This document shows, in pieces, positions 9,605-47,085 of a DNA stretch of 64,000 nt; position 1 is the stretch's first letter; every line of letters starts with the position of its first letter. The DNA lies in contig OZ253462.1 in the NCBI GenBank assembly GCA_965261395.1, positions 3,872,001 through 3,936,000 of the forward strand, given 5' to 3'. This DNA is from Candidatus Latescibacterota bacterium. Its GTDB lineage: Bacteria > Latescibacterota > UBA2968 > UBA8231. The translations under genes were made by a program, and so were the position numbers. The notes beneath the pieces are model-generated. The model ran no database searches, was not told where the DNA came from, and saw nothing but the letters and a program-made list of their open reading frames with translations.

Positions 9605-11709
9605 TAGTAGGCGATGCCCAGCGTCAGCAGTTGTTTTGTCTGGGCAATTTCGGTTAGCAGCGAGACGGAGAGCAGGTAGAAGCCCGGTGACAATAGTTGG
9701 CCCGTTTGATCTCGACCGTCCCAGCCGAGTTGGTGGGATCCGGACCTCTGCATGCCTTGCTCGATGTAAGCGACTCGACGGCCGTCGAGCGCATAAACTT
9801 CTAGCGCTACGGGTGCTGGGGCGGTGAGGCGGAACAAGGAATAGCTGATATCCAACTGGTCGTGGATGCCATCTCCGTTGGGGGTCAGCACTGGAGTGGA
9901 GAGGGTAAGCGACTGGATGAAATCGGGCGACTTACTCGCGGCAGCCAGCACCTGTAGACTGCTTGTCGAGATCGCCTCGCTAGCATCGCCGGGCGCGATC
10001 GGTTGGGGCAGGCTTTCGCTACTCGCGTTAAATATGTCACCAGCAAAAGTAGCGGCGAGTTCGAAAACTTCGCTGGCGAATACTACGCGTATGGGGGCAT
10101 TGTTGGTGTGGGATATTTTTTCGCTCAGGTGAAGGATCAGGCTGTCTTCTCCTTCTATTACTTGGGCCGGATCGACTGTAGCGGGCGGTGAACCCATTGC
10201 TAGGCTGCGGAAGATGGCTTTGCTGCCTGTGTGGATCCGCAGTGCGTCGAAGCCCGGTGTGGTCCCATCGTCGAATTCGGCGCGAACTTCGTAAACGAAT
10301 TCAGTCTGTTGACCCAATTCCACTTCGGTGATGCCCCGCGTTGGTTGCAGATCGTCAAGCTTAGCCACTTCGGCGTAAACTTCATCGGCCAAGAGCGGGG
10401 CCGTCTCGATCCACAGTGAGTCGAGACGTATCCATGCGTTGAAGTCCCTGCTCTCCAATGCAAGATTGAGTTGTAGATGCGATCCACTTCTGAGTCGGAG
10501 ATTGCCTCCAGATTTGGTAAAAGGTACCGACCAGAAGGACCAATTTTCACTATCGTAGCCGACCGAGGCGCGTAGGCCGGGTTGGGGTTCGCGGTTGAAC
10601 AGCGGCGTGAGCGCCTCATAGGCTGCGCGCGATACTTCTCTTTCGCGGCCGAGATCGGTGAATTCGTTGTAGGTCACGGGATTGCCGTCGCGGCCGACGC
10701 GGACTTCGGCCCTGAGCCAGACCGCAGCGTCGGGAGCCTCCACTGCCACTCCGTTTTCTAGGCGCAGCGCTGTGGCCGACCAATGCAGGCGGCCGAAGTT
10801 GACGGCTTCGCCGAGATCGATGGTCTGGCTGAGGTAGACGGCCCTTTGCGGCACGCCTTGGGCGAATATTTCAAAGCCGCCGATGGAGCCCTTTAGCGCC
10901 TGAGCTTGCACCCCCTCGCTGCCGCAGTCTTGGCAGGTGCTGACCGCGTCCTCATCAACCACCGAGAGTTGCCGCCGCCAGCGGAAGTAACGCACGTATT
11001 GCCGTGGGAAATCGACGTGGACGGTGGGATCGAGGTTTTCGGCCACGTTGGCTATCATTTGCTGGAAGGGTTCATAGCCGGCAGATTGCCAAGATTCTGG
11101 GCAGTTGTCCGGTAGCCAGATCCCGACGTTGTTGATGCAGAAATCCTCGCCACCAAACTTGCTGGCAGGCCCGACTATGGCCGGCTCCGCTTCGTCGCCA
11201 ATGGAGATGTCGAAAGCCGGGGTGGCATCGGTGTTCAGCGGTGTACCATCGGAGCGAAAGCCCTGGGAGGGCGTAAAGAATCCGAACTGCAAAGCGGGGA
11301 TCGGCACGGCGGTGTCGAAGGTGTAGAACAGGTCCTTTATTCCTTCCGAGCGGGGTGCGTTGTAAGTGGTAGAGTCCGCGTCGATCAGGAAGACGCCACT
11401 CTGAGTCGGGTCGCCGCCCCTGCCATTCCACCGCTTCCAAACGCGCGGCATATAGCCATCGACATAGCTGAGATTTCTTACGCCGGGAACTCGCCAGAGT
11501 TGCCAGTTTTCCAGCAGGGGAAGGAGGTTTTGGTCCGGCTGCAGATAGCGCGGTTGGATAGAACCGGGGGCGTTGTCAAAATCGACTAAAACCTGCAGGG
11601 AATCGCCTTGGTCCCAAGCTAGGCCGCTGCCACCGATCTGCCACTTTCCAATCTGGGCGTGGCTAACCGTAGCCGCGAGGACCAGGACCAAGAGCCAAGT
11701 ACCGCGCAT
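9604..11709 (-). CDS. Secreted protein with C-terminal FlgD Ig-like domain
   Basis: Signal peptide MRGTWLLVLVLAATVSHA; LTPNGDG..WDGRD..G.Y tail. Confidence 0.8.
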   Translation of the reverse strand: MRGTWLLVLVLAATVSHAQIGKWQIGGSGLAWDQGDSLQVLVDFDNAPGSIQPRYLQPDQNLLPLLENWQLWRVPGVRNLSYVDGYMPRVWKRWNGRGGDPTQSGVFLIDADSTTYNAPRSEGIKDLFYTFDTAVPIPALQFGFFTPSQGFRSDGTPLNTDATPAFDISIGDEAEPAIVGPASKFGGEDFCINNVGIWLPDNCPESWQSAGYEPFQQMIANVAENLDPTVHVDFPRQYVRYFRWRRQLSVVDEDAVSTCQDCGSEGVQAQALKGSIGGFEIFAQGVPQRAVYLSQTIDLGEAVNFGRLHWSATALRLENGVAVEAPDAAVWLRAEVRVGRDGNPVTYNEFTDLGREREVSRAAYEALTPLFNREPQPGLRASVGYDSENWSFWSVPFTKSGGNLRLRSGSHLQLNLALESRDFNAWIRLDSLWIETAPLLADEVYAEVAKLDDLQPTRGITEVELGQQTEFVYEVRAEFDDGTTPGFDALRIHTGSKAIFRSLAMGSPPATVDPAQVIEGEDSLILHLSEKISHTNNAPIRVVFASEVFELAATFAGDIFNASSESLPQPIAPGDASEAISTSSLQVLAAASKSPDFIQSLTLSTPVLTPNGDGIHDQLDISYSLFRLTAPAPVALEVYALDGRRVAYIEQGMQRSGSHQLGWDGRDQTGQLLSPGFYLLSVSLLTEIAQTKQLLTLGIAY

Positions 11710-25661: not shown

Positions 25662-26531
25662 TTAGCTCTCCGCAATCCAGGTTTTTTGGCCGTCGGATTC
25701 CAGCAGGGGCAGTTCCTTGTGGTGGACACCCGGCCCGTAGAGGACGGCTTGCTGTTCGGGCGTGAGTTCGTCGATCCAGGCACCGTAGCGCGCCTGGGGA
25801 GTGAAGTATTTGCCCGTAGCTCGGGCCGCGCCCCGGGAAGCGTATTTGTAGAGCACGGAGCGCCGCAGATTTTTGCCCTTCCAAGGCAGAGTGCCGTGAG
25901 TGGCGGTCTCGGCAAAGAAGAGGACGTCGCCGGTGCGCAGGGCGGGTTGGACGACTAATTCCCCATACTCTGCGAGCGAGCGGATCTCGGGCGGGGTTGG
26001 CTCGCAGGTTTTGTGGCTCCCGGGGATTACGGCAAAGCCGCCGTCTCCGGGGTTGCAGTCGGTTAGTTGCCAAGCCACGGTGATGCCCCGGCAGTAGATT
26101 TTGCCGTTTTGCTGGTGATACCAAGTGGCGGGGCTAAAAGGCTCGCCCGAGCCGTGCAGGTAGTGCCCCTCGGTTCCCTCGGTGGCGCTGATGAGCAGGG
26201 GGCCGTGATCGAGGCGAAAGCCCGGACCGCTGAATTCGTTGAGGCGCGAGACGACAGTGGGATGGACCAGCAGGCGGCGAAAGGGTTCGCGGTAGGGGGG
26301 CGGCCAACCGAGCATGCCGGTGAGCTGTTGGCGGCTAGTTGTGCCTTGCAGCGCGCTTGAGTCGCGGGCGAGGGTGCCGGGGTAGGCGGCGATTTGGTCG
26401 GCGAAGTGGTCGATGGCGGCGTTGCATTCGCCTACTTCCTCTGGAGTGAGGGCGTTGCGAACCACTAGGTAGCCGCGCAAATCGAAGTAGTATTTTTCTT
26501 CTTCTGAGACCGTGTAGAGGTATTTGTCCAC
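25662..26531 (-). CDS. PhyH-family dioxygenase (tandem paralog 1)
   Basis: Same motifs; shares nucleotide blocks with the adjacent paralog (e.g. cgatggcggcgttgcattcgc). Confidence 0.88.
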   Translation of the reverse strand: MDKYLYTVSEEEKYYFDLRGYLVVRNALTPEEVGECNAAIDHFADQIAAYPGTLARDSSALQGTTSRQQLTGMLGWPPPYREPFRRLLVHPTVVSRLNEFSGPGFRLDHGPLLISATEGTEGHYLHGSGEPFSPATWYHQQNGKIYCRGITVAWQLTDCNPGDGGFAVIPGSHKTCEPTPPEIRSLAEYGELVVQPALRTGDVLFFAETATHGTLPWKGKNLRRSVLYKYASRGAARATGKYFTPQARYGAWIDELTPEQQAVLYGPGVHHKELPLLESDGQKTWIAES

Positions 26532-26599: not shown

Positions 26600-26944
26600 T
26601 TAGAGATATCGGATCTGATTTTTCATTTCATCTGCTGTAACCCGATTTAAAATATTCAAGAGCCTTTGCACCATTTCGTACGATGAACGACGGACAGCGA
26701 TAATTATCCCCCAATGCGTTTTATTTTGTTCAAAATATAACTTGGCGAGCGACTCAAAGTGAACGCGATTATGAGTTAGCAATGTCTTCTGCTGCATGGC
26801 TGCGTAAGCTAATTGATCTGCATCACTATTCTGAATTTGGTCTGCATCTCTCGTTGTCAGTGCAGAAAAACCATACGCTTTGAGTAAATCTGCAATCAAG
26901 ACATCAACATCTTCATCGAGATAGAGTTCGACAAATAAACTCAT
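26600..26944 (-). CDS. DUF5615-family PIN-like toxin
   Basis: LYLDEDV, SD.DQL.YA, LLTHN..F, H.GII; AT-rich; ATGA overlap with the upstream gene. Confidence 0.85.
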   Translation of the reverse strand: MSLFVELYLDEDVDVLIADLLKAYGFSALTTRDADQIQNSDADQLAYAAMQQKTLLTHNRVHFESLAKLYFEQNKTHWGIIIAVRRSSYEMVQRLLNILNRVTADEMKNQIRYL

Positions 26945-31098: not shown

Positions 31099-34000
31099 CT
31101 ATTCCCGTTCAAAACCCTGGCTGGAGAACTTGAGCGTGCGGCTGTTCTCGGTGACGGTGCGCACGACGTGATCGGGCGCACCCGAGGGGATTTCGGCTTC
31201 TATCTCCAAGGTCACGGTCACTTTGGCACCTACCAAGCCGGCGAGATGGGCAATGACCTCATCGGCGATCTGGCTCGCGTCGCGACCGACGCGGGTGGCA
31301 TCGAGAGACACGGCCCCGTGAAAGCGCCGCGCTTTCTGCTCGGGTGGGGTAGGGGTTGGCTCTGGATGGGTGCCGGTACCGGCCGATGCGCTGGCGCTCG
31401 GCTCAGCGACGCCGACGCCCGCCCCGGTTGCCGCTGCCGCTGGCTCGGCGTTCTGCTGTGTGATCGCGACTTCGGGCTTGACCAGCAGCCCATCGCTCGC
31501 AGGATCAAGCAGGGGGACCTCACGGCCACAGCGGAGTCCGCGATAGCGGCTCGTGGCTTCATCGAAGGAATCGGCGTAGGCGAACGATTCGTCTGTCCAG
31601 AGGAGGAGCCCCAACCCGTCTTGAATGGCCCTAATTAGGACCTCTGGACCAGCGAGGCGGGGGAGGTACAGGTAGCGGGCGAAGTGGTCTGCCAACTGGC
31701 GGATTTCCACGTGATCGCCGCGCCACAAGGGCACTCGGTCGAGTTCTAGGCGCAAGCGCGTGCCCGCGAGCGCCGGTACCAACAGCTCTTCCGACCGCAG
31801 TTTCTTGCTGGCGCGCACGGCGAGCGGGTCCTGCCCAGTCAGCCGCAGGGCCTGCCACTCGACCGCCGCCTGGGGTGTGGACTGCACTGGCACGAGGAGC
31901 CACTGATAGGCCTCCGGCAGCCGTCCAACCACGGCACCATCCTCCGACTTCAACTGCGCTTCGGCTTGCCGCACCTGATGCGGGTCGAGGTTCAGAGTTT
32001 CTTTGTCTTGGAGGATGGACGACCACGCCAACCAGCGACGAATCGCTTCATCCAGGTCCTGCAGGCGGGTCTGGTCCACGGCAAGGAAGACCAGCGTATT
32101 GCGAAAAAGGCGCGGGGTGTTGCCGCGATTTTCGAGTATGGCGGTGGCTGCGGCCTGCGCCTTGCTGTTCGACCCGCTGCTGTGTGGGTGCTCAGTCCCT
32201 AGCACCACCAGACGGGCCTCCATGTCGTCGGGGATATCAGCGCCGGATTGCGGCACCGTATGGATGCGCTGGAAGTCGCCCGTGGTGCGCAGGTCGGTGC
32301 GCAACCGCTGCTCGATCTCGGCCACCACTGGCGCGGGATCGCGCCTGAATTGATCGGCCCGGTCTTCCGCCAGCTTGGTGACAGTCGGCTGCGTTGAGTA
32401 CCAGTAGCGCGGGCCATCCTGATAGAGGAAGGTCGCCTGCGTGCTCAGGCGACGCAGGGCATCGCCAAAGATCGCTGGTGTTTCACCCGGCATTGCGCAG
32501 CCGAGCTTGATCCGGCGGTCCTCAATGCCGCGATTGGCCACCGAGGTCGTCGGCGCGGAGCCGAGGTACACGGTGCGCGCTACCCGGCGAGTCGCGGAGA
32601 ATTTGCCCAAGTTCGCTACCTCGCCGTCAATGCGCTGCGGCAGTGCATTCGGGCCATCGACATCCGCCTCGATGATCGGCGTCCAGTTGTCGGACAGATA
32701 GCGGGTCAACTCGTTGCGGACGTGCGGGTCGTCGATGGGGATGTGTGCTGGCATGATCAGCGGGTTGCGGTCGCCGCGGTCCCACAGACTGTGGATGACG
32801 GCGGCCATCAGACGCAGGACGCCGCGCGTGCGCTGAAACTTCACTAGCGCGGACCAGTCCGTGTAGAGCCGGTCGAAGACTTCTGGATGGATTGGATAGG
32901 CAGCACGCAGGCGGCGCTCGTAGTCGGCGTCCCGGCATTCGGTAGGGAACTCCTGCTGCTGGGCGCGGTAGAAGTCGGCAAAGGTGCGTGAGACATTGTC
33001 GCGGGCCGTGAAATGCTCGCGCTCGCTCAAGGGTTCAAATAGACGGCGGCGCACGATCTCAAAGCCTTCTTCGGTACTCGCTGGCGTCCAGGAGGATTCG
33101 ACGCGGCCAATGACATTCTTGAGCCGCGACAGCGCCGCCCGGCCGCGGAGGCCACCGACTTCCTCGTCTTCACCTTGGGCATGGGGGGAGGTCGCCGTAT
33201 CCGATGACGGCAAGCTGATCACCAGCAGGCAATGGTTCGCCGCCCGCGCGGATTCGGTCAAGGTCTGGGCAAAGCTGAAGTGGGTTTCGAAACTGCCGGC
33301 TGGCAGGTCGGCGTCGTCGTGCAACTGGCGGGCGTAGGCGACCCATTCGTCGATCAGAATGAGACACGGCCCGTATTCGTTCATCAATTCGCGGAGGGCG
33401 TCGCCTGGGTTGGTGGCGCGCTCGTCGTCCTGCCGCACTTTGTCGAATGCCGCTTTGCCGCCGAGTTGCCAAGCGAGTTCGCCCCACAGTGTCCTGACCA
33501 CGGTGCCATCTTCCTTTGCCGACGGATTGCCGGGCGAGATCTTGTTGCCGACCAGCACGACCCGTTTGACATGGTCGGGCCGTGCGGCGATTTCGGCTGA
33601 TGCTATCAGGTCGTCGATACCCAGCAACTCGCCGGTTGGCATTCCTGAGAATAGATGGTACAGGGCTAGCATGGAGTGGGTCTTGCCGCCGCCGAAGTTG
33701 GTCTGTAGTTCCACCACTGGATCGCCGCCCTGACCGCTCAGCCGCTGCATCGCTCCGCTTAGCAGGCTCTTCAGGCTTTCCGTCAGATAGGTGCGGCGAA
33801 AGAACTCCGCTGGGTTGCGGTACTCGTCGGTTCCTTCACCGATATGGACCTGCCACAGGTCCGCGGCGAACTCGGCCTGCTGGTAGCCGCCGCTGGCCAC
33901 GTCGCGATGCGGGGCTACGACCTCGCGCCAGGGCTTCAGGCTGCCGGTGGCTTGGCTCTCGACGGTGTTGCCAGCGCCGCGCCGGCGTTCACTGCGCGCC

Positions 34001-34437
34001 TGCTCCTCAAAGATCAGACGGCGCAGTTCCATCTTCATGCGATTGACCTCGTCTGCTTGCGGCGCGGAAACGGCTGTCAGCAGGCGGGCGATAGAGTCGA
34101 GGGTGCGGTCGGCGTCGTCGCTGGAGAAGCTGTCTTGGTGCGCCCACTTGTTGCGCTGGTCGCGGATTTCGTTGACGAGGCTGCGCTCGGCACGGCCCAG
34201 TACAGTGCGGAACACGTCATTCCACGTTTCCCACATGAGCTTGAGAAGTGCGGCTACATCCCACTGGTCTATGGGCTTGTCGGTCAGGTGTGGATCATCG
34301 ACAAAGCGCCGGACGGTGTCCATGTGTACGCCACCGGCCTTGATTTTGTCTTGGACCTCGCGCTCGACAAATGGGCCAAGTCCGGCCTTGAGGAGTTCGA
34401 GTGCTTTGCCGACGCGTTCTTGATTGGTAATGGCCAT
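31099..34437 (-). CDS. DUF499 AAA+ ATPase with N-terminal Swt1-like HEPN domain
   Basis: RNKWAH (RxxxxH); LKPWREV..PH.DV, EFAADL, QTNFGGGKTH, LILIDEW, YPIHPE, FQRTRGVLRLMA. Confidence 0.92.
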   Translation of the reverse strand: MAITNQERVGKALELLKAGLGPFVEREVQDKIKAGGVHMDTVRRFVDDPHLTDKPIDQWDVAALLKLMWETWNDVFRTVLGRAERSLVNEIRDQRNKWAHQDSFSSDDADRTLDSIARLLTAVSAPQADEVNRMKMELRRLIFEEQARSERRRGAGNTVESQATGSLKPWREVVAPHRDVASGGYQQAEFAADLWQVHIGEGTDEYRNPAEFFRRTYLTESLKSLLSGAMQRLSGQGGDPVVELQTNFGGGKTHSMLALYHLFSGMPTGELLGIDDLIASAEIAARPDHVKRVVLVGNKISPGNPSAKEDGTVVRTLWGELAWQLGGKAAFDKVRQDDERATNPGDALRELMNEYGPCLILIDEWVAYARQLHDDADLPAGSFETHFSFAQTLTESARAANHCLLVISLPSSDTATSPHAQGEDEEVGGLRGRAALSRLKNVIGRVESSWTPASTEEGFEIVRRRLFEPLSEREHFTARDNVSRTFADFYRAQQQEFPTECRDADYERRLRAAYPIHPEVFDRLYTDWSALVKFQRTRGVLRLMAAVIHSLWDRGDRNPLIMPAHIPIDDPHVRNELTRYLSDNWTPIIEADVDGPNALPQRIDGEVANLGKFSATRRVARTVYLGSAPTTSVANRGIEDRRIKLGCAMPGETPAIFGDALRRLSTQATFLYQDGPRYWYSTQPTVTKLAEDRADQFRRDPAPVVAEIEQRLRTDLRTTGDFQRIHTVPQSGADIPDDMEARLVVLGTEHPHSSGSNSKAQAAATAILENRGNTPRLFRNTLVFLAVDQTRLQDLDEAIRRWLAWSSILQDKETLNLDPHQVRQAEAQLKSEDGAVVGRLPEAYQWLLVPVQSTPQAAVEWQALRLTGQDPLAVRASKKLRSEELLVPALAGTRLRLELDRVPLWRGDHVEIRQLADHFARYLYLPRLAGPEVLIRAIQDGLGLLLWTDESFAYADSFDEATSRYRGLRCGREVPLLDPASDGLLVKPEVAITQQNAEPAAAATGAGVGVAEPSASASAGTGTHPEPTPTPPEQKARRFHGAVSLDATRVGRDASQIADEVIAHLAGLVGAKVTVTLEIEAEIPSGAPDHVVRTVTENSRTLKFSSQGFERE

Positions 34438-34712
34438 GATTTTACTTCCTTATAAATAGCTCTTGGTCGCCGTGCGACTGATTGCACTCGTCCACGGTCC
34501 AATTCGAGTACCTTGGAGCCGAGGACGCAAACGAAGAAGTGAAGCATAGTCAGTATTTGCAAGTCTTGGCAATAGGACTTGATCTTAGAGTCAGAAAGGC
34601 CAGCGCATTCCTCTAGGGCAACGGCCTGTCGAGATGCGATTCGCCAATATCTTACGCCACCCCAGCAGCCATTGTATTTAGACAAGTAAAATCTAGTGTT
34701 TATTTTTGAAGT

Positions 34713-35228
34713 ATGAAGAAGCAAACAGCCGTTTTGGACACCTCATTTTGGGTTTTGGGCCATCGAGCGGATGTACTCGCCTCTCTGTTTCGCTTTTTTG
34801 CGGCCGTTGTCCCATCGGCTGTCCAGACTGAAATACGAGCCCGCGATCCGCGTTATACACAGCGGGTATATGGGTATCAAGAACTGTTTGGCCTGATGAA
34901 GCGGCAGGGAGTATTGGCCATCCGCGATCCTGTTCAGCCGTTGGACCAGTTCCACGCAGGAGAAGTAGCTGCTTTGGGGTTGGCGCTCGACGAGAATCTG
35001 TGGCTGCTGGTGAATGAACTGCGTGCTCTGCGCTTTGCTCGGCAGCGCGGCCTGTCAAGGCGCTGACCGTTCCAGAATTCACCGTATATCTATACGAAAT
35101 AGAAGTGCTGTCTTGGCACAGTGTCCACAGATAAGCTGGATAGGATCGCCGCGAATACTGGAACGGCTTTGATGGATGCGGCCCGCCAAGCCGTGCGGAG
35201 CTTGGCCGAATCCCGAGGAGACCTATAG
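34713..35228 (+). pseudogene. PIN-domain (DUF3368-like) pseudogene with two frameshifts
   Basis: VLDTS, VPSAV..EI, GEVAAL.LA, LLVNE..A...AR..GL; continues in shifted frames (KALTVPEF.., DKLDRIAANTG..) to TAG 35228. Confidence 0.65.
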
Positions 35229-36032
35229 AATGAGTCCTCACAGCAGATGAAAGAGCATAGGGAGTCTAACCGACGACGGTATTCAAGTCGGTCAAGATTT
35301 TATCTACACAGGTTTTACTAAAACCTGTATCGTAATACGTGTAACTATCTTTATTAAAGGGAATAAGAGAGGGAGGCTCTTCATCTTTACATATAACATG
35401 CTTACGGACATCAGGGAGATTGTCGGAAAGGATTTCATTAATATACGGATCACGGAAGGCATACCCGACGAAGATTGCTACATCCGCCCTAAGTGCGGTC
35501 TTCCGTAGATGATCATGGAACATAATAAAAGGTTCTTCTTGGGGCCTTCCTTTAAGTCCTGGATACAAAACTGCTTGTTTTTTTTCATCCCCGGTATAAA
35601 CGGGACTTTGGACAATAGTACCGTCGCTGTTGCGCTGCCAATTCACTGATCCATGCAGCTTGGTCAGCCGCCCGTGACCGTTAATGGATGTGCCGGGACT
35701 ATCCCAAACAGTTGTATCTATGATCGTCTCATAATCATGATGCCTGATACCGTCCTCTATATCTATCCCATACTTTTTGATCGTACTTTCCAATACCAAG
35801 TCATAGTTTGTCGTGAAAATCTCAACAACGGGATCCGAAGATTGGAGATCCTTGAGAAAACGTGCCCAATTGGTTAATTGGTTCTTGTCAGGACGATGTG
35901 TGTATAGATTATGTACTAGGCTATTGATGCTATTTCTTAGATATAAACACTGGTCACTGAAAGATTCTCTATTCCTAATTATAGATTGAGTTTCAGACAC
36001 AGAGGCACCGAATTGAGCGGCCAAGTTATTAA

Positions 36033-36964
36033 GAAGCCGTCTGAAAACCCTTGCTGTAGCCGGTATTTGAATCGGCGTACTCATCGAGCCATATTCAGGT
36101 TTCGCGACAAAATCTGAACAGAAAGGCTCGTATGATGAGTACGCCTAGTAGGCAATATGCCACCGATGTAACCGATGTGCAATGGCGTCGGATCGAACCG
36201 TTGCTGCCGGCTTCGACATGGCAGCCGAACGGTCCGGGTCGGCCACCGCGGGATCGACGCCAGATCGTCAACGGCCTTTTGTATCTGACCAAGACCGGTT
36301 GTCCTTGGGCTTTGTTGCCTTCTTGTTTTGGACCGTGGAAAACGGTGTATGATTACTTTCGTCGCTGGAGTCTACAAGGGGTCTGGCCGCAGGTATTGGA
36401 TCGACTCACCCAGCGGGAACGCCGCCTCAACGGACGGGCTCCAACGCCGTCGGCTGGCGTAGTCGATAGTCAGACGATCAAGACGGCAACCCATGGTAAA
36501 ACAACCGGTTATGACGCCGGAAAAAAGGTCAAGGGGCGCAAGCGTCATCTGTTGGTCGACACCTCGGGCTTGCTTAGACAGGTGGTGGTCACCGCCGCCG
36601 ATGTAGAGGATCGGGACGGCCTCAAGCAGGTGTTGACCCGCTTGGGGGCCTCCGGCGTAGCCCGGTTACGCAAACTGTGGGGCGATGGCGGCTATCGAGG
36701 CGATCCGATCCGAACGTGGGTGGCTAACGTAAAAAAGACGCACAAAATAGACTTGGAAGTCGTCGCCAAACAAGGCCCCGGCTTTGAGGTGTTACCACGC
36801 CGTTGGGTCGTCGAGCGCACGTTTGCGTGGTTGATGAATTTTCGCCGACATGCCCGAGATTATGAGGTGTTGACCCACCATAGCGAAGCCTTGATCCAGA
36901 TTGCTATGATCCACTTGCTGCTCAAACGGATCAAATAGAAAAAATATAGTTTTCAGACGGCTTC
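36033..36964 (+). mobile_element. IS5-family element (IS1031-like)
   Basis: Perfect 16-bp TIR gaagccgtctgaaaac; TNA-type flanks (taa / tca). Confidence 0.92.
36132..36938 (+). CDS. IS5-family DDE transposase
   Basis: YATDVTD.QW, GCPW..LP, DSQTIK, GYDAGKKVKGRKRH, RWVVERTFAW. Confidence 0.95.
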   Translation: MMSTPSRQYATDVTDVQWRRIEPLLPASTWQPNGPGRPPRDRRQIVNGLLYLTKTGCPWALLPSCFGPWKTVYDYFRRWSLQGVWPQVLDRLTQRERRLNGRAPTPSAGVVDSQTIKTATHGKTTGYDAGKKVKGRKRHLLVDTSGLLRQVVVTAADVEDRDGLKQVLTRLGASGVARLRKLWGDGGYRGDPIRTWVANVKKTHKIDLEVVAKQGPGFEVLPRRWVVERTFAWLMNFRRHARDYEVLTHHSEALIQIAMIHLLLKRIK

Positions 36965-37400
36965 TCAGCATATTATTACTCATCATCCACCCCATTATAC
37001 TATCGGGATTAAGTGTGGCATCAAAGGTTCTATTAAAATCATCAATAGTCCACAGAACATCCTCGATGTCAATAAGACTTTCTTTCTTTTGGGCTTTAAG
37101 GAATTCATGGATAAAATTATACAAAGCGTTGTTCTTTACGTCTTCTGGAAGACGTTTGAAGAACTCGATAGTGGTAGGGTAATTTTTGGAATCTACAGAA
37201 GCGGAGCTTCCTGCGCCTGCGAAGACTAGAATCATTCTAATTATCCTTGAATTTGGTGGTTCTGACTAAGACGGTTGACGCAAGCAATTTGCAGCGTGAG
37301 ATCAACGGCGTCAAGAGGGGTGTTACTGCAACTCGGTCCGGCCCAATAGGTTGGACCTTGACATCTCAGACGCGTTTTCTTCAACTTCGTCGGATTCGTA

Positions 37401-37646
37401 TTAACACAACGTAACGAACTCGTCGCCTTCGACTTTACCAATAATTTTATCGAACGAAATATTGCCGTCGTCTGATCGAAAAGCCCAAAGCCGTTCGACA
37501 ATGGCACTGGGATATTCTACAGAAACCATTAATTCCAGCGTTATCTGTCCTTTTTTAGAAATTTCAAGCGTCCCAGAGAGTACATTTTCTTCCTCGCTAG
37601 GCAGCCAAAAATATCCATGCCTTTCAATGGAAGCTGCGAGTCGCAT
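37401..37646 (-). pseudogene. N-terminal stub of an ApeA-type (HEPN-associated) protein
   Basis: GYFWLP....SGTL.I...G.I.LEL and I.G.......VTL match my recollection of the ApeA N-terminal domain; stops after 81 aa. Confidence 0.6.
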
Positions 37647-37652
37647 AATTCA

Positions 37653-37817
37653 TTATCCTAAATTAGCCTGTGAATCGAGATCGACGGTAATGGTAATCAC
37701 TGGGCGATCCAACTTGGACAGCATCGAGGCAGTATGATATATCAAAGAGGTTTTCCCTACGTCTTCCTTGTTATTGAAGAAGGTCAAGACAGGTGTACTC
37801 CTGATCGTATCCGTCAT
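37653..37817 (-). pseudogene. ParA/Soj-family ATPase N-terminal stub (54 aa, not in the ORF track)
   Basis: MTDTIRSTPVLTFFNNKEDVGKTSLIYH..VDLDSQANLG*: degenerate KGGVGKT and DLDPQ.NL motifs; ATGA overlap with the upstream gene. Confidence 0.75.
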
Positions 37818-38707
37818 TCCGTCATCCCCTCGACCAAAAGGAGATGACCGGGCAATCCCTCGGTCGGGGCATCTGATGCTTGCACTTTCCTTGTCTCTAA
37901 CATTATAGAATCCCGCCGTAATTCCTTATGCCGTAATCCCTCATGCCGCAATATCTCATGCCGTAACCTCTCAACATCTTCATCCGATAGCTTTGCGTCA
38001 TCTCGGGACCACAGCCATTCCGGCCAGCCACCGTCAACCGGTTCGAAGTGTACCCAGTCATAGTTTTGCAAGTCATCTACATCTAATGGTAGAAATGACC
38101 CGAGAAATGCGGACAGGCTACGGGAGGAGGCGGGCAGGAAGCGGTGGTCGCGGCCCTGCCGGCAGTCAAAAAGGCAACGCCAAGGCAATGCGGCGCATGA
38201 TGTATGAATCGAGTCAAAGTTCCTAGTTCTAGCCCGGATCGCTTGGCGAATATTCCAGCTTGGCACCAAAGTACAACCTAGTTGCCTTTCGTCGGGACAC
38301 CGACAGCAATGCCAATATGGTTGTATCTTGTGCCGGGCCACGTAGTTGTACAAAAGATAAAGTGGGATGGCGCGTACGCTCCGGGAGTACGTCTCAAGGA
38401 TGTCTATCTGAGATTTCGCTTTGGCGTCGAGACGATAACGCCCCTCGGTTTGATATAGCTTCTTGGCTTGCACTGCAAATGCTGCGGCTCGGTTGCCACC
38501 GGCGTGAATCCGGATTTCCAGATCGGTACCTCGTCTCGATTCCTGACTTTTAGTGCTTTGAAATAGCCTAGTACGACCCTCCATTGAACGTGTGAAATCC
38601 AAAATGAGTAGATCAGTAAGCGTCTCCTCTCCCAACCGGACTTGCACGTCCCATGACTGTTTGAGCCTTCCCCATGTATCCTCTGCGATTTGTTCAGCGG
38701 GGGTCAT
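37814..38707 (-). CDS. DUF6615-like putative PD-(D/E)xK nuclease
   Basis: GEETLTD..E...G.D.E....AVQAKKL..Q...L....P.YLLYN pattern. Confidence 0.6.
   Translation of the reverse strand: MTPAEQIAEDTWGRLKQSWDVQVRLGEETLTDLLILDFTRSMEGRTRLFQSTKSQESRRGTDLEIRIHAGGNRAAAFAVQAKKLYQTEGRYRLDAKAKSQIDILETYSRSVRAIPLYLLYNYVARHKIQPYWHCCRCPDERQLGCTLVPSWNIRQAIRARTRNFDSIHTSCAALPWRCLFDCRQGRDHRFLPASSRSLSAFLGSFLPLDVDDLQNYDWVHFEPVDGGWPEWLWSRDDAKLSDEDVERLRHEILRHEGLRHKELRRDSIMLETRKVQASDAPTEGLPGHLLLVEGMTE
37911..37966 (-). repeat. ~4 x 15-nt coding tandem repeat (LRHEI LRHEG LRHKE LRRD)
   Basis: Plus-strand units tatctcatgccgtaa / tccctcatgccgcaa / ttccttatgccgtaa. Confidence 0.8.
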
Positions 38708-38718
38708 CTTCGATGTGC

Positions 38719-38778
38719 TTAGTTTGTGTGCCGCTCAAGCCAGCGGCGAGCTTCGTCAACGAGTTCAGGGTCGTTCAT
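38719..38778 (-). pseudogene. HEPN toxin N-terminal stub (19 aa)
   Basis: MNDPELVDEARRWL.. overlaps the MNT 3' end, where the HEPN partner normally starts. Confidence 0.55.
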
Positions 38779-39087
38779 AGAGAACCTTTCCTTCGCGGAG
38801 AGCTGAACGCAATGCGGTTCCCACAAGGTGCCCGCGACTAGCGACTTCCTCGGGAGTCGCTACTACTATGTCCTTGCATACTGGCAGATCGCCCAAGGCC
38901 CGACGGATCTCGATAGCCGTGTGCCGCTTGTCGGACACATTGGGCAGAATTACGAGTAGGTCAACGTCGCTTCATTCGGTTGCCGTGCCCCGTGCATGAG
39001 ATCCGAAGAGGACGACCTGCGAAGGCTGGAAGCCTCTCACGATGCGGTCCACCATAGTTGATATAAACGTTTCCGATGCGGCCACAT

Positions 39088-39091
<4 letters not shown>
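38765..39091 (-). pseudogene. Minimal nucleotidyltransferase (MNT antitoxin) with in-frame TGA (38972-38974); not in the ORF track
   Basis: VVLFGSHARGTATE*SDVDLLV..DIVV.TP..LREGKVLYER; ATGA overlap with the methylase stop. Confidence 0.85.
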
Positions 39092-41991
<2,900 letters not shown>

Positions 41992-41995
<4 letters not shown>

Positions 41996-42543
41996 TTGCA
42001 GACGGCCAAGAGGTTCGAGTTTGTAGTCAAAACCTCAATGCCGCCAGACGTGAAATCGCTGTCATTCGTAACCAGCTTCCAGCCATTGCGGCGACATGTT
42101 TCGGCCAGCAAGCCATCGTTGAAGTCAGTCGCTCCCGCTGCAAAATTAGCCAGCACTTGGGTGATATTGGCCGCAGCAAAAGGGTGATCGTGGCAGGCAC
42201 AGAGCTTGAGCATAGAGCGTGCAAAAACCGCTGCACCTTTGCCAACCGCCTTGAAGGCCGCCGATTTGCGGAATGATTTGAATCGAGGATACTGTTTCCG
42301 ATGCCGGACCTTCCATTCAATACGGCAGTAGGTGTTCAGATACTCACTGAGCACCATAGCGTCCATGATCAATTCGGCACCTACAGACTGCATGGATTTT
42401 AACCCGTTGCTATATTGCGCGAAGAATTTGCTCTTGCTTGTGGATGGCGGCGGATACAGGTAGAGCCACACGTTAGCATCGAGCAAGAACGTTTCGCCAC
42501 AGCTAAACGAATAGGCCGCCAGATCGTGCGCCTTATTCTTCAT
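41992..42543 (-). CDS. PIN-domain nuclease (module gene 3)
   Basis: [26 protein letters not shown]; start MKNKAH overlaps the STAS gene end; stop overlaps the methylase ATG. Confidence 0.85.
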
Positions 42544-42907
42544 CGCCCAGTTCCTCCTGCCATGCCCGGTCAAAATCCTCGGGCCTGCTGAAATACGCCT
42601 TGGCGTTATAGACGACGTGCGTGAGCATTTCGTGGTCGTCAGCAGCCAAGTCGCGGAAGAAAAGCAACTCGTCAATGCGATCCTCGGACAGCTCGCCGTA
42701 GAGCTGGCCTACCGCCGCGTTCAGAAATGCAGAGATAAGGATATCCACCCGCTCGAAGGAAAGGACAACCGGCGTCCCCGCCTTTAGGAGCGGAGCGATC
42801 TTGTCGTGCAGATGCTGGCCGTCGCTGGCGGATACGCACAGGGGACCGCCGATAATGTCAAACACTTGCACAGTAATTGGTTCAGTCACGGTTTCACTCT
42901 TTCTCAT
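42533..42907 (-). CDS. STAS-like DUF4325 protein (module gene 2)
   Basis: G..L...I...L..G..V.LSF..V....SAFLNAAVGQLY. Confidence 0.8.
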   Translation of the reverse strand: MRKSETVTEPITVQVFDIIGGPLCVSASDGQHLHDKIAPLLKAGTPVVLSFERVDILISAFLNAAVGQLYGELSEDRIDELLFFRDLAADDHEMLTHVVYNAKAYFSRPEDFDRAWQEELGDEE

Positions 42908-43780
42908 TTAAGACACGTCGTCCGTGTCGATCTCACTCTTCAAGACGTAGACTCCCTCATCGGCCGTATTGATCCCAATCGTTACGGCAGTTCCGGGGAA
43001 GTCTGCCTCCATCTTCGCAAAGCTTTCCTTGTCGCAGTTCAATTCGTAAAACCCGAAGCGAGAGGCGATCTGAATCTTCCCTCCATTAAGGCGGGCGAAT
43101 TTCTGAAGAAACTCAAGGCCTAGCCCACCGGGGTGAGGGCCACGCTTCGTGGTGTTAAGCGGCTTGAGTGCCCATTTAAGAGCCGGGAGGGAACTGATAC
43201 GGGTATCATTGAAGTAACGACGGACGGTCTCGCGGATTCCGATACCGACATCGGCGATAGTAAAGTCGAGACGATGCTGTTGCGGGAAGAATTGGCCACA
43301 GACAAAGACGCCAAGTTCTGATTCGGAATGGACGACGGCATTCTGATAAACCTCAAAGACCTTTTTCTTGAAAACTCGGCTCGCTCCTTCGGACATCCTA
43401 GGAATACCTCTGCCGCTGAGTTGCCGATGGATATATTCCTCGAACTCGCCTTCGTCACTAAGGCGCAGATGGCGAAAGGGCATCGTTATGCGGTCAGAGT
43501 CATCGAGTGATTCATACCAATAATTGGTTAAGAACCGATTTTTCCGAAGTACCTGTTCCACCTTGTCAGGAACAGCAACGATCTTCACGATGTTGAATTT
43601 GTCAGCCACCTGGGCAAGAATCGCCCCTAGGGGTGCAGCCATGTTGGCGTCGAAAAACGAAACCCGCGACATATTGAGTTGCAGTCGGTCGGCAAAGAGA
43701 CCTTCGGCCGCTTTGGCGAGAGCACCGATGCTCTCGAAGCCTTGGCGGTTACTATGCAAGGTTGGTAGGTAATGGATCAC
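42908..43780 (-). CDS. STAS-like + HATPase_c (GHKL, anti-sigma-kinase-like) protein (module gene 1)
   Basis: N-terminal LNMSRVSFFDANM; N-box EVYQNAVVHS; G1 IADVGIGI; TTK..GGLGL; GTAV. Confidence 0.82.
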   Translation of the reverse strand: MIHYLPTLHSNRQGFESIGALAKAAEGLFADRLQLNMSRVSFFDANMAAPLGAILAQVADKFNIVKIVAVPDKVEQVLRKNRFLTNYWYESLDDSDRITMPFRHLRLSDEGEFEEYIHRQLSGRGIPRMSEGASRVFKKKVFEVYQNAVVHSESELGVFVCGQFFPQQHRLDFTIADVGIGIRETVRRYFNDTRISSLPALKWALKPLNTTKRGPHPGGLGLEFLQKFARLNGGKIQIASRFGFYELNCDKESFAKMEADFPGTAVTIGINTADEGVYVLKSEIDTDDVS

Positions 43781-43923
43781 TGCGGCACCGTGGTCGCGAA
43801 GAACTTTGGTCTAGCTGACGGATCGTTGACCATCTGCGCAAAAATCACTGCCGACGCCGACGCCGCGTTGATGGCGTCGAGCGGTAAGGCGACTTCGATA
43901 AGCTTTTTACGGTGCCTAGTCAT
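43777..43923 (-). pseudogene. Diverged, internally deleted 5' stub of a second DUF1156 methylase
   Basis: [37 protein letters not shown]; lacks the 25-aa REKS..WWARRP block; GTGA overlap with the HATPase start. Confidence 0.85.
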
Positions 43924-44147
43924 TTTCGATCTACCATTTTTCAATAATTCACTCTTAGTGCGAGTTCGGGCGTTAGCGCCAGCGTGAAGTATCTGCCAGT
44001 TCTTGCATATGCCGTTCCGTTTTTCCGATCTTCGGCAGCCAGCCCGGCAGGACAATAGACAATATCAGTAGGCACGGCTTGTCGTCAGGTAGCGGGCTAG
44101 CAATCAGTTGCCGCCTATTGCTGCCGGCCCGCTCGCGGGAACCAATA

Positions 44148-44181
44148 ATCTTATTATAAGATATGATGTGATGCTTTAGAA
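44148..44181 (-). promoter_or_regulatory. Putative sigma70 promoter of the island operon with a palindrome over the -10 box
   Basis: Minus strand TTCTAA-17-TATAAT; palindrome atcttat-t-ataagat at 44148-44162. Confidence 0.45.
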
Positions 44182-44194
44182 TGCTCCGCCCACC

Positions 44195-44989
44195 TCAAAC
44201 CCTCCCAGGAAACGACCGTCCCCGCACCTGCTTAAAGGGGGGCATCTTAGGCGCGTCGGTGACCGCCTCGTCGCGCCAAGAAGCCGCGCGCATGTAGTGC
44301 ACGGCATAGCCCCTGCGCCGCGTGCCGGTCCGATTGGCATTGCTCTGGTGCAGCGTCAGGCTGTGGTGGAAGCTGATGCTGCCGGGGCGGAGGGTAGCGG
44401 GCCGGATGGGCCAGCCGTCGCTTTCCAGATCGGCGACAAAAGGAGCCAAGCGCTCGCCCCGCAACATGCCCCAGCGGTGAGTGCCCGGGGCAAAGTTGAG
44501 GCAGCCGTTGTCGAGGGTGGCCGCGTCAATGGCGGTCCAGGCAGAGACCAAATCCATGGGGAAAATATCGCGCCAAGAGGCCGAGTCCTGGTGCCAGCCC
44601 TGAGCCGTACCCGTGCGCGGAGCTTTCATAAAAAGCTGATCGCCATACATCTTGATGTCGTCGGTGCTGAGCAAATCAGCGGCGATGTCGGCGATTTTGG
44701 GGTGGGTGACGTGGGCCCACATCACGTCGTCGTACACTGCTATGTTGTACAATTTGCGCACGGCCAGCACTTGGTCGGTGACCGCTTTTTCGCCGCGACG
44801 GAAGACGGGTTCGAGCTGGATGCTGGTGTCGGGGATGTGGTCTAGCTCGCCGGCGGCAATGCGGTCGGTATGGGCCGCTAAAGCGGCTACCTCGTCGGGG
44901 GTCAGCACATCTTCGACGGTCAGACAGCCGTCGAGTTGGAAGCGCTCTACTTGGTCAGGGGTGAGGTGACGCAGGTTTTGTTGGGTCAC
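44195..44989 (-). CDS. PhyH-family dioxygenase
   Basis: DQLFMK, WHQD, NGCL.F.PGTH, H.S.AN...RR. Confidence 0.9.
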   Translation of the reverse strand: MTQQNLRHLTPDQVERFQLDGCLTVEDVLTPDEVAALAAHTDRIAAGELDHIPDTSIQLEPVFRRGEKAVTDQVLAVRKLYNIAVYDDVMWAHVTHPKIADIAADLLSTDDIKMYGDQLFMKAPRTGTAQGWHQDSASWRDIFPMDLVSAWTAIDAATLDNGCLNFAPGTHRWGMLRGERLAPFVADLESDGWPIRPATLRPGSISFHHSLTLHQSNANRTGTRRRGYAVHYMRAASWRDEAVTDAPKMPPFKQVRGRSFPGRV

Positions 44990-45017: not shown

Positions 45018-46202
45018 GGCTTTGGTGCATGAATTGGTGTTTTTTTCGGTTGATCGGTTGAATAAAAACAGGCTCCTCAGTAGATTGAGCACGACTTTCG
45101 CCAAAAAACCCATGCTTTCTCGTCCAAGGAACCTGTCATGGCCAACCTATCGTCTTGCCCCTCTTCCGTCAAGCCTGGTCGCTCGCCTCGCCGTCGCTCC
45201 AACGTCGTGTACCGGGTACGTAATTGGGCCGACTATGAGGCCGGGCTGCAACAGCGCGGTAGTCTGACGGTGTGGTTCACGCCCCAGGCCGTCGAAGCTT
45301 GGTATTATCAAGGGCCGCCTCAGCGGGGGGCGCAATATACCTTTTCGGAGGTCGCCATCCAAACGGCGTTGACGCTGCGTCTTTTGTATCACTTGCCCCT
45401 ACGCCAAACCGAGGGGTTTGTCGCTTCGGTGTTGGCCCTGATGGGCTTGGATCTGCGGGTGCCCGATCACACGACCCTGTCGCGCCGTCAGGCGGGTTTA
45501 GCCGTGGCGTGGCCGCCCCAGCGGGGAGACCAACCGATGCACTTGGTGGTGGATTCGACCGGGCTGAAAGTGTATGGCGAAGGCGAATGGAAGGTGCGTC
45601 AGCACGGCTGGAGCAAGCGGCGCACGTGGCGCAAATTGCACCTCGGGGTTAATGAAGCCACCGGCGAGATCGTCGCGCAGACCTTGACGACGAATAGCCA
45701 CGATGATGCGGGGCAGGTGGAGCCGTTGCTGGCACAGATCGAGGCCCCCGTGGAGGCGTTGGGCGGCGATGGGGCCTATGACAAACGCAAGGTGTTCAAG
45801 GCGTTGGCCGCGCCCGAGCAGGGGGCACCTATTCATCCGATCATTCCGCCGCGCAAGGACGCCAAAATCGAGCAACATGGCAACACCAACGCCGAGCCGT
45901 TGCCCCGCGATGAGACGATTCGAGCCATCCGCAAACGGGGCCGTCGAGGTTGGAAACACGAGAGCGGCTATCATCGACGCTCGGTAGCCGAAACGCAGAT
46001 AGGCCGCTACAAACAGATACTTGGTGACACCTTGCGCACCCGAACCCTAACCAACCAACAGACCGAAGCGCGGTTGGGCTGTGCCTTGCTCAACCGGATG
46101 CGGGCGTTGGCGAAACCTGAGTCCTATCCGCTAACCAAAAAAGCGTAAATCACACGCGAAAGAAGCCAACACGGCCCCGACCGGTTTTCATGCAACAAAG
46201 CC
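45018..46202 (+). mobile_element. IS5-family element (IS903-like), 1185 bp
   Basis: TIR ggctttg(g/t)tgcatgaa; perfect 9-bp TSD gtatagact (45009-45017, 46203-46211). Confidence 0.95.
45138..46148 (+). CDS. IS903-like DDE transposase
   Basis: NWADYEAGL.QRGSLT.W, DSTGLKVYGEGEW, WRKLHL, DGAYD, GYHRRS.AET. Confidence 0.95.
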   Translation: MANLSSCPSSVKPGRSPRRRSNVVYRVRNWADYEAGLQQRGSLTVWFTPQAVEAWYYQGPPQRGAQYTFSEVAIQTALTLRLLYHLPLRQTEGFVASVLALMGLDLRVPDHTTLSRRQAGLAVAWPPQRGDQPMHLVVDSTGLKVYGEGEWKVRQHGWSKRRTWRKLHLGVNEATGEIVAQTLTTNSHDDAGQVEPLLAQIEAPVEALGGDGAYDKRKVFKALAAPEQGAPIHPIIPPRKDAKIEQHGNTNAEPLPRDETIRAIRKRGRRGWKHESGYHRRSVAETQIGRYKQILGDTLRTRTLTNQQTEARLGCALLNRMRALAKPESYPLTKKA

Positions 46203-47085
46203 GTATAGACTGATAGTTCTCCGTCCAAGCTTTGAGCGGGATATCCTCGTCTTGGGGCCGCCAATAACGCGACACCGGCAGCACCAAGGGATCGTCGCCC
46301 GCATAGGCCGTGCTGCCGGTGCCCAACTCGCCCAAAAGCTGACGCCGCACCGGGTCGCACCCTGCCAAGACGTCCGGGGCTTGATGCTCGTAATCCGAGG
46401 GGCGGATCCAGCGGTGCTGATAGCCATAGTACAGGCATTTGCGCGGTTGATCGGACAGATTGGGGGTCAAGCAGTGGTACAGGGCCGTGCGCCATACTAG
46501 CGCGGTACCGGGGGCGACGTTGACTTCGACAATGCGTTTGGGATCGACGCGGCGCGCATCCTCGTCAATCCACGGCGATTGGCGATGGCTGCCGCGCACA
46601 ACGCAAATGGCACCGCTTAAAGGTTGGGTCAGGTCGGTCAAATAATAGCCGACTTTCATCTCCATAAACGGCAGCACCCCATCGACCGCGGGCCAGCCGT
46701 AGTTGGGGCCGTCGGCGTGCCAAGGGAAAAAACTGTCTGGGGCACCTAGCTCGTGCTCGCCGTCGGCGGGATCCTGCGGCGGGCGCACGTCGAGGTGCGA
46801 TGTGCGGAGCTGGATATTGTAGCCCATCAGGTCCACAACCAGCGGCAAAATGGGTGGATAGTCCACCAATTCCTTAAAGAGGGAGTTGGCGGCGATATTG
46901 CGCATTTGAAAGGCTTGGCGGGGACCGATATTGCGCTCTTGGCGGTAGCGGTCGTACAACTCGTCGAGCCGTTGCAACAGCGCGGCGATGTGGTCGGGCG
47001 GCAGGGCGTCTTCGACGAGGAAGAAGCCGTCTTCGTCAAATTGACGCTGCTGTTCGGGGGTGATTTTTAAGGAGGGTTTGCTCAT
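46150..47085 (-). CDS. PhyH-family dioxygenase whose last codons are replaced by IS sequence
   Basis: WHAD, GSH, H.L.PN.S...RK; the pre-insertion end reads QSILKEETVS*. Confidence 0.88.
   Translation of the reverse strand: MSKPSLKITPEQQRQFDEDGFFLVEDALPPDHIAALLQRLDELYDRYRQERNIGPRQAFQMRNIAANSLFKELVDYPPILPLVVDLMGYNIQLRTSHLDVRPPQDPADGEHELGAPDSFFPWHADGPNYGWPAVDGVLPFMEMKVGYYLTDLTQPLSGAICVVRGSHRQSPWIDEDARRVDPKRIVEVNVAPGTALVWRTALYHCLTPNLSDQPRKCLYYGYQHRWIRPSDYEHQAPDVLAGCDPVRRQLLGELGTGSTAYAGDDPLVLPVSRYWRPQDEDIPLKAWTENYQSIRLCCMKTGRGRVGFFRV

Follow-up and report, generated by a model that had tools for sequence, protein, structure and literature searches.

A probable vapK-vapS-vapC triad

The window analyzed here is a stretch of 64,000 nucleotides (nt) from a Candidatus Latescibacterota bacterium (GenBank assembly GCA_965261395.1, contig OZ253462.1, positions 3,872,001 to 3,936,000 of the forward strand), and all window coordinates below are counted from its first letter. 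Between positions 41992 and 43780 its minus strand carries three closely packed genes, which encode a kinase, a small STAS protein and a PIN-domain nuclease and are surrounded by an Hma locus. The triad is very probably a VapKSC system, a kinase-controlled, type II-like toxin-antitoxin and anti-phage module, and the genes are called vapK, vapS and vapC throughout.

The three genes follow one another without gaps. The TGA of a short upstream stub overlaps the GTG start of vapK as GTGA (43777-43780), the TAA of vapK is followed at zero distance by the annotated ATG of vapS (42907), the vapS stop and the vapC ATG (42543) are engaged in an 11-nt overlap, and the stop of vapC shares an ATGA with the start of the methylase gene hmaB (41992-41995). 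An initial annotation, made from the sequence alone, had described such a gapless minus-strand trio; the open reading frames (ORFs) and all four junctions were reproduced, with the reservation that the vapS start may shift. When the relatives of vapS are aligned they begin six codons further in, so the true start in the window may be GTG 42889, giving a protein of 118 amino acids (aa). If this start is real, the seamless TAA/ATG junction between vapK and vapS becomes an 18-nt spacer.

The product of vapS matches the Pfam family DUF4325 (E 3.5e-13) and that of vapC the PIN family (E 8.2e-8). The kinase has 506 homologues at E <= 1e-3, and among the 120 listed most are 289-290 aa long. All 20 rows of the kinase-family alignment match HATPase_c and 9 of the 20 match STAS_2 (E <= 0.01). 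No helix-turn-helix (HTH) family was matched by the window kinase in the Pfam scan. The AlphaFold2 model of VapK (predicted local distance difference test, pLDDT, 69.5; predicted template modeling score, pTM, 0.74) opens at residue 2 with a strand-helix-strand, STAS-like unit. Its best Foldseek matches in the Protein Data Bank (PDB) are all GHKL ATPases, namely Topo VI-B, CheA P4, GRP94 and DesK, in agreement with the kinase fold given in the initial annotation, which had suggested this comparison.

Conservation of the triad

Loci related to the triad were drawn from species-representative genomes with search patterns for the kinase alone, built from its close relatives. Homologues of vapS and vapC lie directly downstream of the kinase, in the order K-S-C, at each of the 45 loci obtained, so that the co-occurrence of the three genes, put forward in the initial annotation as a check, holds throughout. 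All three frames are full-length and open at 36 of the 45 loci (K at 39, S at 42 and C at 40), and vapS overlaps vapC at 42 of the 44 loci where both genes were called. The nearest relatives of the window triad are found in metagenome-assembled genomes of Candidatus Latescibacterota.

The kinase tree and the conservation table comprise 41 of the 45 called kinases (44 loci plus the window). The kinases of L036, L041, L042 and L045 were left out of the tree because they are too short, L043 has no called kinase, and L025, which contains an internal stop, was kept. A few rows with a mis-set start or length are included in the conservation table (VapS of L014 and L045, both the kinase and VapS of L025, and VapC of L040).

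The boxes of the GHKL domain are almost invariant. N147 of the N box, D177 of the G1 box and G218, G219 and G221 of the G2 box are each present in 41 of 41 homologues, and G179 and G181 of the G1 box in 40 each. Ser59 of VapS, which belongs to the motif ILISAFLN, is conserved in 42 of 44 homologues, both exceptions being Thr, and S or T occupies this position in 24 of the 24 rows of the curated alignment. Toward its C-terminus VapS has a conserved A102-K103-x-Y105-F106 block and, after it, an acidic tail, both in the window and in its relatives. The acidic residues D22, E67, D143 and D161 of VapC are found in all 41 homologues and D163 in 40. Residue F43 of VapK (FFDANMAAPLG), a candidate counterpart of F54 in the Escherichia kinase discussed below, is invariant in 20 of 20 close homologues, and is conserved to less than 90% in the wider set of 41 sequences. 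The initial annotation had read the three products as a STAS-like N-terminus joined to a GHKL HATPase with N, G1 and G2 boxes, a DUF4325 STAS protein with a serine in ILISAFLN, and a PIN nuclease with its acidic residues; the family matches and the conserved positions bear out all three descriptions.

Outside chromosomes, six plasmid records were found by tblastn, none of them from Escherichia, and only the Deinococcus record covers at least 80% of the query. Plasmid P5 of Deinococcus gobiensis (L047, 7465-9817) carries a free-standing triad annotated as ATP-binding protein, STAS-like and PIN. A helix-turn-helix regulator gene lies upstream of it, small phage-like genes are found around it, and there is no Hma nearby.

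In the closest relative of the window (L002, kinase 93% identical), vapC (11238-11537) is shortened to 99 codons. It corresponds to residues 1-93 plus a few codons, then runs by an ATGA onto hmaB, and D143, D161 and D163 are gone. The hmaB of L002 is in one frame while its vapC is cut, which is the reverse of the state in the window; these are two cases and no inference is drawn from them.

Relationship to the Escherichia VapKSC system

The triad was named vapKSC by Chambers, Rani, Min, Villa and Corbett (EMBO J 2026, PMC13373217; preprint 10.64898/2026.02.02.703251), who counted 289 instances, 103 of which lie within 10 kb of another immune gene. Its Methods list WP_135559716.1, WP_135559717.1 and WP_135559718.1 as VapK, VapS and VapC of Escherichia sp. 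E4736. According to this report, Escherichia VapC is toxic and its D28A mutant is not. VapS neutralizes VapC in a 2:2 complex, which was solved at 3.4 Å (PDB 9z7o). Neutralization is abolished by a C-terminal deletion of VapS or by the mutation S48E, and the phosphomimetic S48E also abolishes VapC binding. The Ser or Thr at the S48 position is described as absolutely conserved, and F54 of VapK (WP_135559716.1) as a putative contact with single-stranded DNA (ssDNA). The Escherichia operon, cloned alone, confers about 2 logs of protection against phage Bas42, and the protection is gone with VapC D28A, VapS S48A or VapK F54A. VapK was insoluble; its kinase activity and activation by ssDNA come from AlphaFold 3 models and from the analogy to CapK, and the authors propose that, once it senses ssDNA, it phosphorylates VapS. 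DNA damage or ssDNA is the trigger they describe, and not the loss of neighboring genes (PMC13373217).

The best PDB match of the window VapS is chain 9z7o_A, 'Escherichia VapS' (E 7.1e-11, residues 15-113), and that of the window VapC is chain 9z7o_C, 'Escherichia VapC' (E 3e-4, residues 8-180). Ser59 of the window VapS lies opposite Ser66 of the chain, which would correspond to Ser48 of native VapS if, as we infer, the numbering of the 134-aa chain is offset by 18 residues from that of the 116-aa native protein. D22 of the window VapC lies opposite the catalytic D28. Because the solved VapS and VapC chains are the best matches of the S and C proteins, the triad is assigned to the named and characterized system: judged by homology, it is a new, distant example of VapKSC, set in an Hma operon. 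The gene order of the window triad, the homology to the solved VapS and VapC, the conservation of the catalytic and acceptor residues and the co-occurrence of the genes across phyla are all direct observations.

The initial annotation had proposed a phosphorylation-gated tripartite toxin-antitoxin or abortive-infection module with a PIN RNase as its output. This coincides with the published model of VapKSC, the window S and C proteins are homologous to the Escherichia pair, and the key Ser and Asp align. The annotation knew of no characterized system of such a layout, and had counted a match to an already named system among the results that would speak against its proposal; VapKSC is such a match. 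Its further suggestion, that the triad may guard the adjacent restriction-like system, differs from the published model, in which the trigger is DNA damage or ssDNA.

Several observations weigh against the assignment to VapKSC. The window proteins are only distantly similar to those of Escherichia, and the E-value of the VapC match is modest. The HATPase_c match of the window kinase (E 2.4e-4) reaches 22 bits, compared to a Pfam gathering cut-off of 26.4, and a sequence search of the PDB with the kinase returned no match at E <= 1 when it was used singly and nothing meaningful when it was used as a profile. The models of PADLOC 2.0.0 give no match to the STAS and PIN proteins. The sole match of the kinase is to the GHKL-bearing DrmA model (E 1.4e-6), with none to an HEC or PDC candidate system, so the PADLOC comparison envisaged in the initial annotation turned out negative. 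In L002, which is the closest relative, the 3' half of vapC is missing. Furthermore, the host Hma locus is damaged by the hmaB frameshift and the stub, and the triad could therefore be on its way to decay.

Prediction of the kinase-STAS complex, another check suggested in the initial annotation, gave an ipSAE of 0.35, versus 0.00 for the best control. Of 80 solved complexes 58 attain this value, as do 2 of 110 mismatched pairs. Only 7 of the 80 solved complexes, against both passing mismatches, score 0.60 or less, and a prediction in that range is wrong in most cases if the pairing was not likely beforehand. The three runs share at least 0% of their contacts and the partner pLDDT is at least 81. 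The predicted complex gives weak support to the pairing.

Proposed mechanism

Toxicity, neutralization, phosphorylation, the ssDNA trigger and a role in defence would be expected of the window triad by analogy with the Escherichia system. The PIN nuclease VapC would be kept inactive in a VapS2-VapC2 complex, in which the STAS domain of VapS would bind VapC and the C-terminal helix of VapS would reach toward the active site. The STAS-GHKL kinase VapK would be switched on by ssDNA formed upon DNA damage or phage replication, and would then phosphorylate VapS on Ser59. Phosphorylated VapS would release VapC, the liberated nuclease would cleave RNA, and the growth of the infected cell would stop.

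The Hma locus around the triad

The window carries an Hma set that consists of the HmaA helicase, the HmaB methylase and the HmaC ATPase, with hmaB frameshifted (Table 1). HmaC matches the Pfam families HEPN_Swt1 (E 1.1e-35) and DUF499 (E 1.2e-30), and HmaA matches Helicase_C, SNF2-rel_dom, ResIII and NOV_C. The PADLOC model of HmaB is matched by both parts of the split gene, by the 5' part with E 4.4e-47 (profile positions 7-104) and by the 3' part with E 0 (106-958). The window copy of VapKSC is one of several defence cassettes embedded in the Hma locus. It lies directly 5' of hmaB, with which it is probably co-transcribed.

Table 1. Coordinates of the triad, the Hma genes and the associated features in the window
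Feature	Position	Strand	Description
vapK	42908-43780	minus	290 aa, GTG start; N-terminal STAS and C-terminal GHKL (Bergerat-fold) kinase
vapS	42533-42907	minus	124-aa STAS protein (DUF4325), putative antitoxin; conserved C-terminal region ending in an acidic tail
vapC	41992-42543	minus	183-aa PIN-domain protein, putative toxin (VapC-like RNase); ATG at 42543
Stub	43777-43923	minus	Degenerate copy of the hmaB 5' end; 48 codons, with 25 codons deleted internally
hmaB 5' segment	41811-41997		Repeated, 80% identical, at 43814-43925
hmaB	39088-41995	minus	DUF1156 N6-adenine methylase; frame broken by one inserted base at ~41717
Embedded cargo	34438-39087		Low G+C (0.49); between hmaB and hmaC
57-aa fragment	38765-38938		Broken cargo
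DUF6615 gene	37814-38707		Open
IS transposase	36132-36938	plus	IS4/5-family; open
SIR2-like gene	35266-36084		Open
Unassigned cargo ORFs	34693-35241 and 36792-37235
hmaC	31099-34437	minus	HEPN_Swt1 and DUF499 ATPase; 1112 aa, open; PADLOC HmaC E 0
hmaA	27563-31090	minus	SNF2/DEAD helicase with NOV_C; 1175 aa, open; PADLOC HmaA E 0

The triad was described in the initial annotation as intact amid cargo that is mostly broken. The triad is indeed intact, and hmaB, the stub and the 57-aa fragment are broken; the second part of the claim does not hold for hmaA, hmaC, the DUF6615 gene, the SIR2-like gene and the transposase of the insertion sequence (IS), all of which are open. The cargo between hmaB and hmaC was possibly disrupted by the IS.

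A promoter and terminator scan of positions 41800-44300 found no site of either kind (1.3 and 3.0 in shuffled sequences), a result that is uninformative for a non-model phylum. RNA run X20 covers 8 of 30 bins, all of them in the conserved 5' part of hmaB at 90-99% likeness and none in the triad. Run X1 contains the triad unchanged on one contig (0 differences), and run X5, which belongs to another study, contains it with 3 differences.

Just beyond hmaA lies a gene for a 114-aa DUF5615 protein (26600-26944). DUF5615 proteins are PIN-like and often paired with a DUF433 antitoxin, and this gene at the island edge may be a further small toxin-antitoxin gene. Also just past hmaA, at this end of the Hma island, lies an ORF (25662-26531) that matches PhyH in Pfam. 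Two ORFs on the opposite side of the island (44195-44989 and 46150-47085) resemble it by eye, and a 336-aa ORF (45138-46148) sits between them. The sequence just upstream of the stub, which is the 3' end of the 44195-44989 ORF, is shared by the related locus L004, and the chromosomal site of the island is therefore the same in this relative.

Lesions and direct repeats in hmaB

The frameshift in hmaB is caused by one extra G at about 41717, compared to L002 and L004, and is outside a homopolymer. The extra base is absent in part of run X7 (depth 46 of 96.2) and in RNA run X20. It is kept in contigs of runs X1, which possibly represents the source sample, and X5, and because these two runs come from different studies the frameshift appears to be a genuine lesion at strain level and not an assembly error. 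As hmaA and hmaC are open while hmaB is frameshifted, the question arises how a restriction-like system survives without its methylase.

The stub upstream of vapK was recognized by its similarity to the N-terminus of HmaB (BLASTP, 36/73 identities with a 25-residue gap, E 2e-17), and it also matches the PADLOC HmaB model (E 7.2e-9). L002 and L003 carry this stub upstream of vapK as well, and in L004, L005 and L009 about 45 nt of its end can still be recognized. Two direct repeats of hmaB 5' sequence, 80% identical, bracket the triad: D1 (71 nt) at 41927-41997 and 43855-43925, and D2 (51 nt) at 41811-41861 and 43814-43864.

One contig of run X1 joins position 41890 to 43866 and thereby skips the whole triad (1,975 nt). 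The joint is weak, with a depth of 2 versus 55.5 and a shorter side of 21 letters. It is as expected from recombination between the flanking hmaB 5' repeats, and it may instead reflect a repeat artefact or the DNA of a different organism.

Several full or partial copies of hmaB are arranged in tandem on one strand in L005 (11785-20866) and L008 (14566-20860). The cassettes between the copies encode an AbiJ_NTD4 protein and a HicA toxin, and an AAA_15 ATPase follows the last copy. Such duplicated hmaB 5' sequence occurs in the window and in L002, L003 and L005. The conserved 5' end of hmaB looks like a recombination site for the entry of cassettes, each of which leaves a duplicated hmaB 5' stub behind.

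Association with Hma and alternative explanations

The usual gene order at the Hma-linked loci is hmaA-vapK-vapS-vapC-hmaB-hmaC. The window and its two nearest relatives deviate from it, having hmaA after hmaC and the stub before vapK. Among the 45 loci, hmaA lies within 1 kb upstream of the triad at 17 and hmaB within 3 kb downstream at 20; either flank is present at 21 loci and both at 16. Divergent Hma-like matches are found elsewhere in L022 and L043, and 22 of the 45 loci have no Hma match within 10 kb. The stop of hmaA overlaps the start of vapK as ATGA at nine loci, and the stop of vapC touches or overlaps the hmaB start, read as ATGA, at 15 (gap -4 in 10, -1 in 5). On the kinase tree (41 rows) the Hma-linked rows fall within a single clade, which has 28 rows and spans eight phyla; the Hma label changes 4 times, and 0 of 500 shuffles gave as few changes. 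The distances between kinases are correlated with those between HmaA proteins (Mantel r 0.64, with 0 of 2000 permutations as high).

It is conceivable, though rather unlikely, that VapKSC of this clade forms a fixed part of an Hma subtype, to which it is coupled in translation, and that this subtype is distributed over at least eight phyla. The window triad would then be a working part of that subtype: unwinding or cleavage of foreign DNA by HmaA and HmaC would produce ssDNA, which would trigger VapK, and VapC would deliver a second-line abortive response. Membership in VapKSC is compatible with this explanation, which differs just in the origin of the trigger. The direct hma flanks at 21 of the 45 loci, 16 of them with both flanks, speak for it, but 22 loci lack any Hma match within 10 kb, and the share of flanked loci is biased upward because the search patterns were made from near relatives of the kinase. 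The single clade and the Mantel correlation point the same way, but related sequences share labels, so neither proves co-evolution; moreover, the window hmaA is nearest to that of L014/L015 (79%) whereas its vapK is nearest to that of L005 (78%), which indicates shuffling of modules. The overlapping codons at both ends fit the explanation, as does the lack of a terminator-like site between the triad and hmaB in the scan reported above, which is uninformative for such a phylum. A comparable coordination of restriction-modification (R-M) systems with CapK/CapS has been proposed (PMC13373217), but the same report has the Escherichia operon protecting when cloned alone. Finally, Hma hosts many unrelated embedded cassettes, which were found in 62.7% of 1,485 Hma systems (Payne, Hughes, Fineran and Jackson, 2024 preprint, 10.1101/2024.01.29.577857). 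If the explanation were true, a restriction-like first-line defence and RNase-mediated abortive infection would form one wired circuit and not merely two neighbors.

Three other explanations were considered. A predominantly addictive or stabilizing module, which retains the Hma island and has no real role in phage defence in this host, is improbable: the toxin and the labile-type antitoxin have the architecture of such modules, the flanking repeats could delete the triad, and the rare and weak X1 joint skips it, but a dedicated and conserved kinase is needless for plain addiction, the island to be stabilized is already damaged, and protection in Escherichia requires F54 of the kinase and S48 of VapS (PMC13373217). 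A transcriptional switch of the CapK/CapS type that acts on hmaB-hmaC, with the PIN gene as a passenger, is more doubtful still. The position of the kinase-STAS pair immediately 5' of hmaB is reminiscent of the CapK/CapS pairs, which are reported to precede immune operons and to adjoin R-M systems in 88 of 443 cases, but CapK has an N-terminal HTH and CapS a C-terminal winged HTH (wHTH) (PMC13373217), whereas the window kinase opens directly with its STAS domain, the 124-aa STAS protein has DUF4325 alone with a short acidic tail, and the PIN gene is invariably present (45 of 45 loci). Least probable is a classical partner switch of the RsbW/RsbV or SpoIIAB/SpoIIAA type on a sigma factor encoded elsewhere. 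The two folds are the same, a GHKL serine kinase and a STAS protein, and NCBIfam spIIAB is faintly matched (E 0.0071, 16.2 bits versus a cut-off of 135 bits). However, no sigma-factor gene is found in the operon or in the surveyed neighborhoods, where the survey sought just the K, S and C genes, Hma, DUF6615 and SIR2; the invariable third gene encodes a PIN nuclease; and in the solved complex VapS is bound to VapC (PMC13373217).

Comparison with known systems

The window triad resembles VapKSC in its gene order, in a STAS-GHKL kinase that lacks an HTH, in a small STAS protein with a short C-terminus, in the VapC-like PIN protein and in its location beside other defence genes. The sequence homology of S and C to the Escherichia pair extends to the aligned acceptor Ser and catalytic Asp. 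It is unlike the described examples in that it is distant in sequence, belongs to an uncultured lineage and is nested in an Hma operon, where it overlaps hmaB. Hma, DUF1156 and DUF499 do not occur in the main text of PMC13373217.

The window resembles the embedded Hma systems of the 2024 preprint in that additional genes are lodged among its hmaA, hmaB and hmaC. The tested cassettes HEC-01 to HEC-09, as far as described there, do not include a kinase-STAS-PIN cassette, HEC-03 being an ABC ATPase with a PIN protein, and its main text contains none of the terms STAS, HATPase, GHKL and DUF4325 (10.1101/2024.01.29.577857). The embedding of cassettes in Hma is thus already published, and it is the context of the triad within Hma that the present analysis adds.

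The PIN.4 group of Matelska et al. 2017 (PMC5499597) shows an S-C pairing like that of the window triad; the description, by which alone the window PIN protein is likened to this group, gives neither a kinase nor a function. In CapK/CapS, as reported in PMC13373217, a STAS-GHKL kinase likewise phosphorylates a STAS protein upon ssDNA, and the genes lie next to immune operons, but CapS represses transcription through its wHTH, whereas the output of the window triad would be a nuclease. With no HTH match and a 124-aa STAS protein that has DUF4325 alone, the triad does not belong to this type.

SpoIIAB/SpoIIAA and RsbW/RsbV share with the triad a GHKL serine kinase and a STAS substrate phosphorylated on a conserved Ser, but the window kinase has a STAS domain of its own, and a PIN nuclease, not a sigma factor, would be the output. 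The spIIAB score, far below its cut-off, and the conserved PIN gene place the triad outside these families.

Type II VapBC systems also combine a VapC-like PIN toxin with a neutralizing protein encoded just upstream by an overlapping gene. The antitoxin of the triad would be a STAS protein and not a DNA-binding VapB. VapS, unlike the antitoxins of VapBC, is reported to leave the active-site Mg2+ in place and to release the toxin by phosphorylation rather than proteolysis (PMC13373217). The window triad was not classified as VapBC, as its upstream protein is STAS/DUF4325 and the NCBIfam VapC model scores 22.1 bits versus a cut-off of 73.6.

Two further candidates were considered. MADS, an eight-gene Pseudomonas system with a kinase, was dropped as a match. 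The STAS passages of Kaur et al. 2020 (eLife) concern Csx3 and not a kinase-STAS-PIN triad.

Significance

From nothing but the sequence, a reader arrived at the mechanism of a system whose experimental characterization dates only from 2026. With this assignment the range of VapKSC comes to include uncultured Latescibacterota-like genomes and many other phyla. Triads annotated as ATP-binding protein, DUF4325 and PIN can now be given a name; the PADLOC 2.0.0 models miss such triads. Loci in which the triad recurs between hmaA and hmaB, with overlapping stop and start codons, are a natural setting in which to ask if kinases that sense ssDNA link DNA-targeting defence to abortive effectors, an idea that was raised for CapK/CapS, without a test, in PMC13373217.

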